From Chloroflexota bacterium (GTDB taxonomy: Bacteria > Chloroflexota > Dehalococcoidia > Lucifugimonadales > UBA2985), in NCBI GenBank assembly GCA_028877205.1, contig JAPPHY010000011.1:17218-81217 (forward strand): a stretch of 64,000 nucleotides of DNA, written 5' to 3'. The position numbers were made by a program, and so were the translations under genes. Below the pieces are notes generated by a model. That model made no database searches and was not told where the DNA came from. It worked only from the letters and a program-made list of their open reading frames with translations. This document shows positions 10,697 through 19,498 of the stretch, in pieces (position 1 is the first letter of the stretch; every line of letters starts with the position of its first letter).

Positions 10697-10943
10697 AGGT
10701 AGCTCCTTGTCTCATGTGCCGCCGCGCAACCTACGTTGTGCCGGAGCGACACGGGTCAGAGTCTCTCCCGAATGGTACCGCCTGGTGACTGCCCCGTCCA
10801 GCGGCTGCATTGGTCGATCGTGCGCGGCCTGCCGGTCGTCGCCGGCCACGACCTTCGTACTCCTGTTTCGCGGGCAAGGCCCGTGATAACATGGTGCTCG
10901 GCCACCTAACGGCACCTGAACGCTGGCAACACAGGAGTAGCCC

Positions 10944-11138
10944 GTGGGTATTTCGGGCGTGAAGGCCCTGACCTTTGACGTATTCGGTACCGTGGTCGAC
11001 TGGCGCGGAAGCATCATCCGCGAGGGTGAGCAGCTGGGCAGGGCCAAGGGCATCGACGTCGACTGGTCCGAGTTCGCCGACAGGTGGCGTGCGGGCTACG
11101 CCCCCGCAATGGCCCGCGTGCGGAGGACCGCCGCGTGA
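10944..11138 (+). pseudogene. Truncated 5' fragment (about 61 codons) of a type II haloacid dehalogenase gene. It is a diverged duplicate of the start of the intact gene at 14528.
   Basis: MGISGVKALTFDVFGTVVDWRGSIIREGEQLGRAKGIDVDWSEFADRWRAGYAPAMARVR matches residues 1-60 of the 14528..15241 product. Similarity ends at 11125 and a stop follows at 11136-11138. Confidence 0.85.
10956..11125 (+). repeat. Left copy of the ~170-bp imperfect direct repeat flanking the island (partner at 14540-14709)
   Basis: Hand alignment gives 10 mismatches in about 170 nt, and 7 of them are synonymous third-position changes. Confidence 0.9.
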
Positions 11139-11436
11139 GGCTCGCCGGGGATGTGCGCCAGCTCCGTCGACTCGACAAGGGGCATCCGACTGAGGGCATC
11201 GAGTAGCAATCGGTCAAGGATCGCAATGCGTTGAGCGTAGCAGAGCTACGCCAACATCGGCATCTCTTAACGAAAAATCCCATTTGCAGCAAACGCCGAT
11301 GACAAATTTGACGTCTTGACGAAACATAGGCCGATGGCTCATATTCCAGAGAGATTGAGGATACATCACAATGACCAGCGGGAGACTCGTCCCATGATAG
11401 GAAAATCTGACTGCCCACTAGTTCGAGGAGGACCAG

Positions 11437-12552
11437 ATGGTCAGCCTAGAAGCTAACGAGGGCGACAAGATATCGGCGATCGAAGCGGATGTGGAGGTTG
11501 AGGACCAAGACGTCGATTCAGTTGCGCCGGTGCGCTACGAGATCACCAGCTTCGGCGTAGACTTCGATGTAGAGGGGCTCTTCCGTCGCCTCGAACGAGG
11601 CGAAATCGCAATTCCAAAATTCCAACGGAACTTCGTCTGGAGTCTCAGACACTCCTCTAGATTCATCGAATCCTTGCTGTTGGGTCTGCCCGTTCCCGGC
11701 ATCTTCTTGTCTCGAGACTTCGACTCGGACAAGTACGTGGTGATCGACGGACAGCAGCGCCTCAAGAGCCTCCAGTTCTTCTGCAATGGAGTGTTTAACC
11801 CATCGGCTGAAGCAAACACACAGCGGACGTTCAAGTTGACTGGGGTTCAGCAAGAGTTCGAAGGACTAACGTACCAAGAGTTGTCACCCCGCGACAGGTT
11901 CCGTATCGACAACTCCGTCATTCACGCAACGGTCGTCAAACAGGACGCTCCGGCCGAGGACAATACAAGCGTATACCATGTCTTTGACAGGATTAACAGT
12001 ACTGGCCTACGCCTGTCAGCCCAAGAGATTCGCAGTGCTATATGTCACGGCAAGTTCATTGACAAGCTTGGCATCCTCAATGAGCATCCAAGCTGGAGGT
12101 CGATGTTCGGAAGAGTACACTCTCGGATGAGGGACCAAGAGCTTATACTCCGTTTCTTGGCATTTTTCTTCGACGAGGCTCTCTACAACCCTCCTATGTC
12201 AGAGTTCTTAACCGTGTTCGTTCAGAAGAATCGGAATCCACAGGATGATTTCCTTACGGAGTCTAATGACATATTCACCCAAACAATGGATGCCTTCATG
12301 GGTGCTCTGGGTGAACGCGCGTTCCGTATTGAACGGGCACTGAACGCTGCCATATTCGACTCGATGTCTGTCGGCTTGGCTAGGAGGATTGCCTCGTCGA
12401 ACAACCTTCCTGAGCCCGAGCCAATTAAGGCGGCCCACCGTTCTTTAATTGAAGATCGAGACTACTTGGAGGCGGTATCACGATCCACTGCAGATGAGCG
12501 GTCTGTTTCCATACGCATGACGAAAGCCGTCGAGCGCTTCGCAGTTCTGTGA
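11437..12552 (+). CDS. DUF262 (ParB-like nuclease/NTPase superfamily) protein without a DUF1524/HNH C-terminal domain
   Basis: IPKFQRNFVW and VVIDGQQRLKSL (DGQQR encoded at 11746-11760). Also FDRINSTGLRLSAQEIR and MRDQELILRFLAFF. RBS GAGGAGG before the ATG. AT-richer than the flanks (the line at 12181 counted 27/60 GC). Confidence 0.8.
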   Translation: MVSLEANEGDKISAIEADVEVEDQDVDSVAPVRYEITSFGVDFDVEGLFRRLERGEIAIPKFQRNFVWSLRHSSRFIESLLLGLPVPGIFLSRDFDSDKYVVIDGQQRLKSLQFFCNGVFNPSAEANTQRTFKLTGVQQEFEGLTYQELSPRDRFRIDNSVIHATVVKQDAPAEDNTSVYHVFDRINSTGLRLSAQEIRSAICHGKFIDKLGILNEHPSWRSMFGRVHSRMRDQELILRFLAFFFDEALYNPPMSEFLTVFVQKNRNPQDDFLTESNDIFTQTMDAFMGALGERAFRIERALNAAIFDSMSVGLARRIASSNNLPEPEPIKAAHRSLIEDRDYLEAVSRSTADERSVSIRMTKAVERFAVL

Positions 12553-12553
12553 G

Positions 12554-13057
12554 ATGCGTAATCGGGAACTCGCAAGCCAACTCGACTCGCTGAAGTCCCT
12601 GCTGGCAGTTACAGACACCGCCACGGGCGGCAATATAGAGCTCGTTGGTCATTGGGGAAGGTATCTCTGTGTCTTGACCGCCGGCTTCCTCGAGAACGCT
12701 CTAAGAGAAGTGTTTAGCGAATTCGTGAGAAATGCTGCTAGTCCTCAGGTAGCTAGTTTCGCCACTAGGAGATTGGAGCGAATCTCCAACCCAAAATCGG
12801 GCCGCTTCATCGAAACCGCACAAAGCTTCGACTTCGTATGGGCTAGCGACCTAGAAGACTTCCTGAATGCGGACGGAGGACGGAGGCGAAATGCTATAGA
12901 TTCGATTATGAGCAACCGCAACCGGATCGCCCATGGTGAGAGTGTTCAAGTATCCGTTGGCCGGGTCCGGGAGTACCTACCCGGTTGCATTCAAGTTGTC
13001 GAGTTTATTGAGAATCAGTTGCTCGGCACTACATCTCACGAGCCTAGAGCGGTTTGA
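12554..13057 (+). CDS. HEPN-domain protein (R-x4-H; resembles the MAE_28990/MAE_18760-type HEPN family), predicted RNase
   Basis: All-helical 167-aa protein. IDSIMSNRNRIAHGES contains R122-N-R-I-A-H127 (12917-12934). The ATG lies 1 nt after the DUF262 stop (TGAgATG). Confidence 0.65.
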   Translation: MRNRELASQLDSLKSLLAVTDTATGGNIELVGHWGRYLCVLTAGFLENALREVFSEFVRNAASPQVASFATRRLERISNPKSGRFIETAQSFDFVWASDLEDFLNADGGRRRNAIDSIMSNRNRIAHGESVQVSVGRVREYLPGCIQVVEFIENQLLGTTSHEPRAV

Positions 13058-13347: not shown

Positions 13348-13683
13348 CTAGCTCCTTTTCTCTCCCCTTCCCAAGAAAGTCAAGGCTGTTGCGATTAGCA
13401 GAAGTATCGTAGCCAGTATATATGCCAAATAAACGGCAACAAACCCGACGACGGCCGATACGAGCATCAGGCCCGCCGCCAGCTTTGGCTTTGCCATTGA
13501 CAGCGCGGCCCCAACCAATCCAGCGATGGATGCAGCCAAGGCTACGAAGCCGCCCGAAGTTACTGTTCCCGCGTCCTCGGCCCCTAGTGCTCCACCAATG
13601 CCACCAACAATCAAGGCAAATATGGCGCCGACGAATCCTGCTATGGAACCCAAGACGCCTATGATTAGTCCTGCTATTCGCAA
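13348..13683 (-). CDS. Small Gly/Ala-rich integral membrane protein (3-4 TM helices)
   Basis: MRIAGLIIGVLGSIAGFVGAIFALIVGGIGGALG...LMLVSAVVGFVAVYLAYILATILLLIATALTFLG. Lies 15 nt downstream of the lipoprotein gene. Confidence 0.6.
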   Translation of the reverse strand: MRIAGLIIGVLGSIAGFVGAIFALIVGGIGGALGAEDAGTVTSGGFVALAASIAGLVGAALSMAKPKLAAGLMLVSAVVGFVAVYLAYILATILLLIATALTFLGRGEKRS

Positions 13684-13698
13684 TGAGTACCCCCTTCT

Positions 13699-14145
13699 TC
13701 ACTCTCCCTTGAGGATGCTGCACCCCACTACATCAATGGTGAAGGGGTCTCTATCCTCTCCCTCGTCTCCCTTGCCGCGCAGAGTTACCCGGTCCCCCTT
13801 TGCGAGCGATGCTATATCGTTCAGGTGGCTTTGACTGAAGTGGCATCGCACGTTTTCGAGCGTGAAGTCTCCAGTAACCAAGTCCACCCAATAGGCCTGG
13901 CCGTCGCCACCGCCAAAGTCGCTCACCGTGCCACTGAGCGCCAGCACCTTCCCGTCGTACTTCTGGTCGGCAGCAATCCTGTTGCTCTCATAATCGTCAT
14001 ACATTTGCCTGGCAGTGACCCGTACCTCGATGGGCGAATCGGCGATCTCTAGTTCTACCTGCTCCACTTCTTCTTCAGATACGGTGCAGGCTAGCAAAAC
14101 TGCCACTACAAGTACCAGGCACGCGGCGAATCTGGAGTAATTCAA
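13699..14145 (-). CDS. Lipoprotein with an OB-fold (tRNA_anti-like type) domain
   Basis: Signal/lipobox FAACLVLVVAVLLAC. MYDDYESNRIAADQKYDGKVLALSGTVSDF...VRCHF...GDRVTLRGKG. Same domain pattern as the middle of the 4016..5362 protease. Confidence 0.7.
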   Translation of the reverse strand: MNYSRFAACLVLVVAVLLACTVSEEEVEQVELEIADSPIEVRVTARQMYDDYESNRIAADQKYDGKVLALSGTVSDFGGGDGQAYWVDLVTGDFTLENVRCHFSQSHLNDIASLAKGDRVTLRGKGDEGEDRDPFTIDVVGCSILKGE

Positions 14146-14222: not shown

Positions 14223-14453
14223 GTGGACGCATATCAATCGGCGTTTGGCCGACACATACGCTACATACGGATGCTGCAGGGTTCCACCCAAGAGGAGGTG
14301 GCACACCGTGCTGGCATTCATGTGACCTACCTTTCCGGTATTGAGAGAGGCCAGAGAAACCCGTCACTGAAAAACATCCGTGCCATTGCTAAGGCCATGA
14401 ACGTAAACACTGCCGACCTGTTCTCATTCGAGCCGGAAAGTAGCTCCGAATAG
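14223..14453 (+). CDS. XRE-family helix-turn-helix transcriptional regulator
   Basis: FGRHIRYIRMLQGSTQEEVAHRAGIHVTYLSGIERGQRNPSLKNIRAIAKAMNV. GTG start. Confidence 0.85.
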   Translation: MDAYQSAFGRHIRYIRMLQGSTQEEVAHRAGIHVTYLSGIERGQRNPSLKNIRAIAKAMNVNTADLFSFEPESSSE

Positions 14454-14527
14454 TGAGCATCATGGGTAAATGTGCTCACATAGAGATCGGATAGCTGGAT
14501 CGGCGGCTGGCAATCTAGGAGAAGCAC

Positions 14528-15241
14528 ATGAGCATATCTGGCGTGAAGGCCCTGACCTTTGACGTATTCGGCACCGTGGTCGACTGGCGCGGCAGCATCA
14601 TCCGCGAGGGTGAGCAGCTAGGCAGGGCCAAAGGCATCGACATCGACTGGGCTGATTTCGCCGACAGGTGGCGTGCCGGCTACGCCCCCGCGATGGCCCG
14701 CGTGCGGAGCGGCGAGCTGCCCTGGACCAGGATCGACGTGCTGCATCGCATGATCCTTTATGGCCTGCTTGATGACTTCGGCGTCACGGGCCTCAGCGAA
14801 GACGAGAAGGATCGCTGGAATCGGGTGTGGCACAGGCTCGCTCCGTGGCCGGACTCCGTGCCCGGCCTGACACGGCTGCGCCAACGCTTCATCGTGGCCA
14901 CGCTCTCCAACGGCAACGTGGCTTTGCTCACCAACATGGCCAAGCACTCAGGCCTGCCCTGGGACTGCATCCTCTCCGCCGAGCTGGTGAGGCGCTACAA
15001 GCCCGACCCGGAGACCTACCTTGGCGCGGCGGACCTCCTGGGCTTGCGACCGGAGGAGGTCATGATGGTGGCGGCCCACAAGGGCGACTTGAGGTCGGCG
15101 CAGGCGGTGGGCCTCAGAGCCGCGTTCGTTGCGCGACCCGACGAGTTCGGCCCGAGTGTCGAGGTGGACGTGACGCCCGAAGCGGATTTCGACGTCAACG
15201 CCGCGGACATCGAGGAGCTCGCTATCAAGCTGGGCTGCTAG
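14528..15241 (+). CDS. Haloacid dehalogenase type II (HAD superfamily), intact copy
   Basis: ALTFDVFGTVVDW (DxxGT motif)...ATLSNGN...RYKPDPETY...AAHKGDL. Confidence 0.85.
   Translation: MSISGVKALTFDVFGTVVDWRGSIIREGEQLGRAKGIDIDWADFADRWRAGYAPAMARVRSGELPWTRIDVLHRMILYGLLDDFGVTGLSEDEKDRWNRVWHRLAPWPDSVPGLTRLRQRFIVATLSNGNVALLTNMAKHSGLPWDCILSAELVRRYKPDPETYLGAADLLGLRPEEVMMVAAHKGDLRSAQAVGLRAAFVARPDEFGPSVEVDVTPEADFDVNAADIEELAIKLGC
14540..14709 (+). repeat. Right copy of the ~170-bp imperfect direct repeat (partner at 10956-11125)
   Basis: See the left copy. Similarity to the left copy ends at the same codon (61). Confidence 0.9.
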
Positions 15242-19424: not shown

Positions 19425-19498
19425 TGGGCCGTCAGGGATTCGAACCCTGGACTCCCGGATTAAAAGTCCGGAGCTCTAACCGGCTGAGCTAACGGCCC
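19425..19498 (-). tRNA. tRNA-Lys (anticodon UUU), CCA not encoded
   Basis: Hand fold of the reverse complement: GGGCCGT-TA-GCTC-AGCCGGTTA-GAGC-T-CCGGA-CTTTTAA-TCCGG-GAGTC-CAGGG-TTCGAAT-CCCTG-ACGGCCC-A. Confidence 0.9.

Follow-up and report, generated by a model that had tools for sequence, protein, structure and literature searches.

A probable divergent PD-T4-2-type DUF262–HEPN gene pair on a small low-GC island of an uncultured Chloroflexota-like genome

PD-T4-2, a two-gene anti-phage system described as ‘DUF262, HEPN’, was identified by functional selection in E. coli ECOR65 (Vassallo et al. 2022, PMC9519451). It protects K-12 against T4, its deletion from ECOR65 restores T4 plaquing, and an H127A strain of PD-T4-2B was built, loss of protection being reported for the four site-directed mutants of that study (PMC9519451). 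In the authors' HHpred table PD-T4-2A corresponds to PF03235 and PD-T4-2B to PF18735 (RiboL-PSP, 97.8% probability; PMC9519451), and the precomputed Pfam annotation for P0241 is likewise PF18735. Other relevant systems are Menshen (NsnABC; Millman 2022, Li et al. 2025), in which NsnA is proposed to sense DNA (Li et al. 2025, PMC12065111), and GmrSD, BrxU and SspE, whose DUF262 proteins act on modified DNA (PMC10952713). Among HEPN families, RiboL-PSP-HEPN and MAE_28990 are both listed in operons with ParB genes (Anantharaman et al. 2013). Here we describe a pair of adjacent genes encoding a DUF262 protein (gene 1, A subunit) and a HEPN protein (gene 2, B subunit) in a 64,000-nt stretch of an uncultured Chloroflexota-like metagenome-assembled genome (MAG; GenBank GCA_028877205.1, contig JAPPHY010000011.1). 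This whole stretch is referred to as the window, and coordinates are those of the window unless a locus is named. We consider it probable that the pair is a divergent PD-T4-2-type two-gene anti-phage system, brought into a Chloroflexota-like chromosome on a ~3.4-kb low-GC island.

A preliminary description of the locus, made from the sequence alone, proposed a two-gene defence module and stated that no experimental characterisation of such a pair was known. The proposal was reasonable, since the pair has the architecture of a validated anti-phage system. The accompanying statement is outdated, as PD-T4-2 combines a DUF262 protein with a RiboL-PSP HEPN protein and protects against T4 (PMC9519451): the pairing is already known in kind and is not uncharacterised.

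Domain organisation of the two genes

The features of the pair are as follows:
11425–11432, + strand: Shine-Dalgarno-like run GAGGAGGA, 4 nt 5′ of the gene 1 ATG, read from the sequence
11437–12552, + strand: gene 1, PD-T4-2A/NsnA-like ParB-DUF262 protein, 371 aa, without a nuclease domain
11437–11529, + strand: acidic disordered N-terminal tail, gene 1 residues 1–31 (predicted local distance difference test, pLDDT, <50)
11572–12039, + strand: ParB/Srx-like DUF262 nucleoside triphosphatase (NTPase) domain, gene 1 residues 46–201, from the Pfam match and motifs
12040–12549, + strand: C-terminal all-helical domain, gene 1 residues ~202–371, from AlphaFold2 helices and the extent of the PADLOC profile match
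12550–12556, + strand: gene junction TGA-G-ATG (translational coupling); the sequence reads CTG-TGA-G-ATG
12554–13057, + strand: gene 2, RiboL-PSP-type HEPN protein, putative RNase effector, 167 aa
12917–12934, + strand: codons of the R122-x4-H127 motif (RNRIAH), putative catalytic site, from the conserved motif

The sole Pfam match of gene 1 is GmrSD_N/DUF262 (PF03235; E 1.9e-28, residues 46–201). The hallmarks of this domain, part of which had been recognised in the preliminary description, are intact (QRNFVW at residue 63, DGQQR at 104 and FDRIN at 183), and Q63, R64, W68, D104, G105, Q107, R108 and N187 are invariant in 70/70 homologues. The Pfam scan of gene 1 revealed no DUF1524, no HNH and no other recognisable nuclease domain, which confirms the earlier observation that the DUF1524/HNH half is missing. 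The AlphaFold2 model (pLDDT 83) consists of three parts, the disordered acidic tail (1–31), an alpha/beta ParB-like domain and a purely helical C-terminal half, with helices spanning residues 195 to 369. In a Foldseek search it came closest to BrxU (7p9k; E 5e-5); next were ParB-N domains, SspE (6jiv), Noc and DndI. As modelled, the protein fits a ParB/Srx-type NTPase followed by a helical domain of the ‘ParBDB’ type, a name given, together with a proposed DNA-binding role, to the helical domain of NsnA, SspE and GmrSD (Li et al. 2025, PMC12065111). By analogy, the C-terminal domain of gene 1 would be equivalent to ParBDB and is a putative DNA-binding domain. Among PADLOC profiles, gene 1 matches NsnA (E 4.5e-68, 228 bits; residues 27–366 covered) and PD-T4-2_A (E 2.7e-50, 169 bits; protein residues 22–368, profile positions 19–361 of 363).

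The acidic N-terminus of gene 1 (10 acidic and 2 basic residues among the first 34) is a common property of A subunits. N-terminal net charge is no higher than −4 in 91% of 70 A-family members, PD-T4-2A has 12 acidic and 0 basic residues at the equivalent position, and an acidic tail is present in 8/9 plasmid and E. coli A subunits compared. A typical tail contains 8–18 Asp/Glu and 0–2 Lys/Arg residues, so that its composition is conserved but the tail sequence itself is not. The tail could be an autoinhibitory or partner-binding element. A counterpart was also marked at locus L005 (5001–5090).

Gene 2 matches the Pfam family HEPN_RiboL-PSP (PF18735) with 62.3 bits (E 7.4e-17; cut-off 28.4 bits). 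It contains a single R-x4-H motif (RNRIAH, residues 122–127), in which R122 and H127 are invariant in the gene 2 family alignment (A1); across 70 genome homologues H127 is kept in 70/70 and R122 in 67/70. The AlphaFold2 model, built from a 48-sequence alignment, is all-helical with a mean pLDDT of 92.4, and both the helical fold and the motif agree with the preliminary description. HEPN_MAE_28990 (PF18737), the other HEPN family considered, gave only 16.6 bits (E 0.009), under its 26.8-bit cut-off. The link between MAE_28990-like HEPN genes and ParB operons mentioned in the preliminary description is indeed in the literature (Anantharaman et al. 2013), but gene 2 belongs to RiboL-PSP instead. 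Like other members of the RiboL-PSP-HEPN family (Anantharaman et al. 2013; PF18735), gene 2 scores above the gathering threshold and has the conserved R-x4-H, but it lacks the fused endoribonuclease L-PSP domain from which the family takes its name.

Linkage of the pair across genomes, plasmids and viral contigs

In the window a single base separates the stop codon of gene 1 from the ATG of gene 2, as first noted in the preliminary description, which also suggested a comparison of gene neighbourhoods. Homologues of gene 2 were sought in GTDB, with one genome per species, yielding 80 loci from Chloroflexota (Dehalococcoidia and others), Cyanobacteria, Nitrospirota, Acidobacteriota, Planctomycetota, Pseudomonadota, Gemmatimonadota, Poribacteria, Latescibacterota, Firmicutes and others. 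In 80/80 of these genome loci the gene immediately preceding the HEPN homologue, on the same strand, is a DUF262 gene of the gene 1 family. Of these loci, 77 were counted by script; in the remaining three the DUF262 gene, still the nearest upstream gene, seems to overlap the HEPN gene by ~100 nt, probably an artefact of choosing the longest open reading frame (ORF) start. Intergenic gaps in the 77 loci are mostly between −4 and +3 nt, with peaks at −4 (18 loci), −1 (9), 0 (13) and +1 (7). Pairwise identities among A proteins correlate with those among B proteins (r = 0.78; reached by 0/999 permutations), and the two genes are therefore inherited together. The pairing of DUF262 and HEPN genes is not due to chance. 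Three other genes of the window island, encoding a DUF4064 protein, an OB-fold lipoprotein and an XRE regulator, were considered as extra components of the system and rejected: across the 80 loci the first two were never found as neighbours (0 each), the third gave three weak matches, and none is a conserved neighbour. The functional unit is thus the DUF262–HEPN pair.

Relatives of gene 1 are also common on plasmids, with 736 records matching in a tblastn search. In all eight relatives inspected (30–44% identity to gene 1), from Hymenobacter, Kocuria, Arthrobacter, Rhodococcus, Phaeobacter, two kinds of E. coli plasmid and A. baumannii pAB1, the gene immediately downstream is a HEPN gene, as judged from annotation or shown in this analysis. 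All four plasmid HEPN partners run against Pfam pass the RiboL-PSP threshold, and BLAST comparison of gene 2 with the HEPN partners of plasmid pairs gave E-values of 1e-17 to 1e-6 (1e-17 to 2.5e-11 for those of Phaeobacter, Arthrobacter, Hymenobacter, E. coli and Rhodococcus).

For most DUF262 relatives at or above ~30% identity among viral contigs in IMG/VR, the downstream gene encodes an R-x4-H protein of about 160–240 aa. Of 26 relatives with downstream sequence, 17 have a partner matching a HEPN profile and three have no such ORF, and 5/6 of the HEPN partners compared with Pfam are above the RiboL-PSP threshold. Three relatives with lower identity (26–31%; L118, L120 and L125) have an AAA_15 + DUF3696 ATPase gene downstream, corresponding to Menshen NsnB. 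In the sampled IMG/VR relatives the downstream neighbour separates a PD-T4-2-like clade from a Menshen clade.

Several relatives have unusual features. L099, L101 and L108 of IMG/VR encode DUF262 relatives of 420–445 aa, ~30% identical to gene 1, with no R-x4-H ORF directly downstream and only a short ORF after about 135–147 nt; these may depart from the pairing rule or be paired with some other gene. No DUF262–HEPN fusion, which would have been a sign of A–B contact, was seen, as no HEPN domain was found in seven long or atypical DUF262 proteins of viral contigs or in the A subunit of the Hymenobacter plasmid. The latter (L001, 2446–4011) carries an extra N-terminal MTaX1 (‘methylase-associated X1’) domain (1.6e-28), and N-terminal domain accretion, as described for type II Menshen NsnA, is therefore also found in PD-T4-2-like sensors. 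The 3948-bp E. coli plasmid pLR-27_3 (L003) consists essentially of a replication gene, a VbhA-family antitoxin gene and the DUF262–HEPN pair, a content compatible with a plasmid-borne defence or addiction role of such pairs.

Comparison with described systems and rival explanations

The authentic PD-T4-2 locus was recovered by searching E. coli genomes with the homology arm of the lambda-red deletion primer given in the original paper (17 E. coli genomes in this search). In strain 2009C-3133 it is located in a P4-like satellite, between psu and the integrase gene, and it encodes a DUF262 protein of 364 aa and a HEPN protein of 167 aa. The two systems share gene order (A then B), tight coupling and orientation on the same strand; an A subunit composed of DUF262 and a helical C-terminal domain, with an acidic N-terminal tail and no nuclease; a RiboL-PSP-type HEPN protein as B subunit; and location on mobile DNA. 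Gene 1 and authentic PD-T4-2A are 30% identical (BLASTP, E 2e-34). The motif of PD-T4-2B (RNAAAH) lies at residues 122–127, and both its position and the length of the protein (167 aa, R122-x4-H127) are the same as in gene 2. The differences lie in the B subunits, which have no detectable pairwise or profile–profile similarity and of which gene 2 is missed by the PADLOC B models; in the host, an uncultured Chloroflexota-like MAG rather than E. coli; and in the carrier, a small integrase-less island inside a HAD-hydrolase gene rather than a P4-like satellite hotspot. PD-T4-2A is about equidistant (27–33% identity) from every other A subunit compared, indicating that the window pair belongs to a different, larger subfamily than the tested PD-T4-2. 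We conclude that the window pair is in the same architectural and evolutionary family as PD-T4-2, in this different, larger subfamily, with strongly diverged B subunits.

A number of observations weigh against assignment of the pair as a PD-T4-2-type defence system. BLASTP gave no alignment between gene 2 and PD-T4-2B, and hhalign aligned the gene 2 family colinearly with the PD-T4-2B family (6–129 and 7–129) with an E-value of 0.06, which is not significant (E 0.53 against the single PD-T4-2B sequence). Direct homology of the B subunits could thus not be shown by BLASTP or hhalign, and they are connected by a transitive bridge only, from gene 2 to the HEPN protein of E. coli plasmid L003 (E 2e-11) and from there, weakly, to the PADLOC PD-T4-2_B profile (4.4e-4). 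PADLOC v2.0, a search also suggested in the preliminary description, recognised gene 1 (NsnA, PD-T4-2_A) but none of its models, including three for PD-T4-2_B, matched gene 2. Foldseek comparison of the gene 2 model with the PDB gave nothing significant (no match with E <0.37), HEPN entries 2hsb, 5yep, 7bxo, 7ae6, 4nqf and 3o10 being weak matches (TM-scores 0.36–0.53), and the sequence profile of the gene 2 family had no match among PDB sequences; the HEPN assignment therefore rests on the Pfam profile and the invariant motif and not on the fold. The NsnA profile gives gene 1 a higher score (228 bits) than PD-T4-2_A does (169 bits), and the genes around the island are metabolic, rather than part of a defence island. 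A literature search found no mechanistic study of PD-T4-2 and no later mechanistic paper on DUF262+HEPN pairs. Finally, the defence role of the window pair is predicted from its likeness to PD-T4-2.

The pair resembles Menshen in that gene 1 has the NsnA architecture (ParB-DUF262 + ParBDB), in that NsnA is the top PADLOC match of gene 1, and in the proposed logic of a DNA sensor acting on an RNase effector. It differs in lacking both the NsnB (AAA_15/DUF3696 ATPase) transducer and the NsnC (inPIN + nuclease) effector, with the HEPN gene directly following the sensor. The gene downstream of gene 1 encodes the 167-aa HEPN protein, and no ATPase is encoded anywhere in the island; there is no third same-strand gene, the next genes, on the opposite strand, encoding the DUF4064 membrane protein and the OB-fold lipoprotein; and none of the PADLOC models for NsnB and NsnC matched gene 2 or any of the other three ORFs of the island. 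As NsnB and NsnC are absent from the island, the pair is not a Menshen system. Authentic PD-T4-2A also matches the PADLOC NsnA profile (1.6e-58), and a strong match to this profile is therefore not by itself indicative of Menshen.

These results bear on the possibility that gene 1 is an orphaned NsnA, with gene 2 an unrelated HEPN neighbour by accident. This would explain why NsnA is the best PADLOC match of gene 1 (4.5e-68), but that profile also recognises PD-T4-2A, no NsnB-like ABC ATPase or NsnC is present in the island, the DUF262 genes with an NsnB-like ATPase downstream are the three more distant IMG/VR relatives (26–31% identity), and the HEPN neighbour is kept in 80/80 loci. Refuted by this neighbourhood analysis, accidental juxtaposition has a close to negligible probability. 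GmrSD, BrxU and SspE share with gene 1 the N-terminal DUF262 NTPase with DGQQR, and the gene 1 model is closest to BrxU, with SspE also matched. Gene 1 is not a member of this group, since it has no DUF1524 His-Me nuclease domain; it is also shorter (371 aa, versus 580–600 aa for BrxU and the DUF262 protein of the DndI system, 9jfl), and the window pair has a separate HEPN effector, presumed to act on RNA rather than DNA. It is nevertheless conceivable that the A subunit is the true effector, binding modified or foreign DNA in the manner of type IV restriction and blocking or nicking it, with the HEPN protein an accessory or regulatory component and not an RNase. The action of GmrSD, BrxU and SspE on modified DNA (PMC10952713), the structural proximity of the gene 1 model to BrxU and the protection given by PD-T4-2 against T-even phages, which carry glucosyl-hydroxymethylcytosine DNA, would all suit such a role. 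We regard it as quite improbable, given the lack of DUF1524, HNH or any recognisable nuclease domain in gene 1 (Pfam), the near-invariance of R-x4-H in the HEPN family and the presence of PD-T4-2B H127 among the residues mutated in the set reported to lose protection.

The main rival explanation is a toxin–antitoxin (TA) or addiction module, in which the HEPN RNase would be a toxin neutralised by the DUF262 protein and the pair would serve to keep plasmids and islands stable instead of sensing phage. TA systems with a HEPN toxin are well known (HepT/MNT), and tight coupling and co-inheritance suit a TA pair equally well. The 736 matching plasmid records also fit, as do the many plasmid relatives, whose neighbours often include classical TA genes or partition genes (PemIK in E. 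coli IncF, RelE/ParE in A. baumannii pAB1, ParA in Phaeobacter) and the 3.9-kb E. coli plasmid of which the pair is the main cargo. However, the sole homologue tested came out of a selection for phage defence and was validated as such, T4 plaquing returning when it was deleted from the native host, and a 371-aa NTPase with an invariant catalytic motif would be unusual for a simple antitoxin. A mainly TA or addiction role appears unlikely, although TA and defence roles are compatible and not mutually exclusive.

For a PD-T4-2-type defence system, the best-supported mechanism is one modelled on other DUF262 systems: the DUF262 NTPase of GmrSD, BrxU and SspE recognises features of DNA and drives the nuclease attached to it. 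Gene 1 would be the sensor module, as in those proteins and NsnA, minus the nuclease half; gene 2 would be translated in step with gene 1, and R122-x4-H127 would form the RNase centre upon dimerisation. At rest, A and B would be complexed and the RNase silent. Binding of invading phage DNA, or of some feature of it, by the A subunit would cause an NTP-dependent conformational change that releases or activates the HEPN RNase, which would then cut RNA and stop translation, thereby blocking phage production. Licensing of the RNase by the sensor is, for the window pair and for PD-T4-2 alike, something that we infer from these analogies, and the trigger, any contact between A and B, the RNA that is cut and the death or survival of the infected cell likewise belong to the model. 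The domain identities, conserved catalytic motifs, strict linkage and co-inheritance described above are observed.

A more far-reaching proposal joins several of these elements. The window pair might represent a large, mostly environmental DUF262–HEPN subfamily, functionally distinct from E. coli PD-T4-2, with a HEPN subunit diverged past recognition from PD-T4-2B; the acidic A tail might be a built-in nucleic-acid mimic holding the sensor or the RNase shut until displaced by phage DNA; and the switch from sensor to RNase might be direct, without an ATPase transducer, unlike Menshen. The subfamily was seen in Chloroflexota, Cyanobacteria, Nitrospirota, Acidobacteriota, plasmids of Actinomycetota and other groups. 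We consider this combination, taken as a whole, unlikely.

The island and the significance of the pair

The pair lies in a low-GC stretch from ~11200 to ~14600 (GC 0.50–0.57; flanks about 0.60–0.70), with the following additional features:
10922–11125, + strand: left direct-repeat copy, a displaced 5′ fragment of the HAD-hydrolase gene and island boundary, from the repeat alignment
11316–11345, + strand: promoter-like site TTGACG-18-CATATT upstream of gene 1, with 9/12 consensus matches; weak
14506–14709, + strand: right direct-repeat copy, the 5′ end of the intact HAD-hydrolase gene with its ribosome-binding site, and island boundary, from the repeat alignment

An island of about 3.4 kb is bounded by a 204-nt imperfect direct repeat (copies 90% identical), each copy holding the ribosome-binding site and first ~60 codons of the HAD-hydrolase gene; the truncated 64-aa ORF of the left copy (10944–11138) repeats the N-terminus of the HAD protein that 14528–15241 encodes. 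The island looks like the result of insertion into the 5′ end of the HAD gene by an element carrying its own replacement 5′ end. No integrase was identified among the island genes, there is no tRNA gene near the island (the nearest is at 19425), and an Rfam search at E up to 1 found no structured RNA between 10500 and 15000. The same sequence is present in MAG GCA_028874055.1. In two other Dehalococcoidia chromosomes (L033 and L053) the genes just upstream of a DUF262–HEPN pair encode a HAD hydrolase and an SGL (gluconolactonase-like) protein. Homologous genes flank the window island, in a different arrangement, and this region may be a recurrent insertion neighbourhood.

The promoter-like site upstream of gene 1, proposed in the preliminary description, exists as described, but the number of such sites in the region (4) is indistinguishable from chance (2.1 ± 1.5 in shuffles), with sigma-70 rules uncertain for a probable Chloroflexota host, and the site therefore carries no weight. 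Downstream of the pair, on the opposite strand, are the DUF4064-like membrane protein gene (13348–13683; PHROG 6780, a phage family of unknown function, 1.9e-16) and the gene for a putative lipoprotein with an OB-fold (tRNA_anti-like) domain (13699–14145; PHROG 8545, ‘superinfection exclusion Sie-like’, 1.5e-9). These two genes do not accompany the DUF262–HEPN pair in other genomes and may be a second, surface-acting exclusion module derived from a prophage. At the right end of the island, an XRE/HTH_3 regulator of 76 aa (14223–14453, + strand) matches PADLOC models for restriction-modification ‘control protein’ (2.6e-16) and, in addition, phage repressor families; a promoter-like sequence (TTGACA-17-TAGACT, 14222–14194) faces away from it. 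Overall, the island looks like a prophage or satellite remnant with accessory genes.

The overall importance of the locus is modest, and for mechanistic work it is no better a place than the E. coli system; what is worth keeping is the miss by the PADLOC B models and the compositionally conserved acidic tail of the A subunit. The former reveals a detection gap, in that the HEPN partner evolves fast enough to escape the B models of PADLOC v2.0; should both subunits be required for a PD-T4-2 call, pairs of this kind are missed and PADLOC-based counts may be too low. As a working rule for the loci examined, a small R-x4-H protein encoded downstream of a DUF262 relative marks a PD-T4-2-like pair, and an AAA_15/DUF3696 ATPase in that place marks Menshen. 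Concrete handles for biochemistry are offered by the motifs and the acidic tail, both of them conserved, and by the strict coupling. The PD-T4-2 architecture is found well outside Proteobacteria, in many other phyla and in uncultured Chloroflexota-like genomes.

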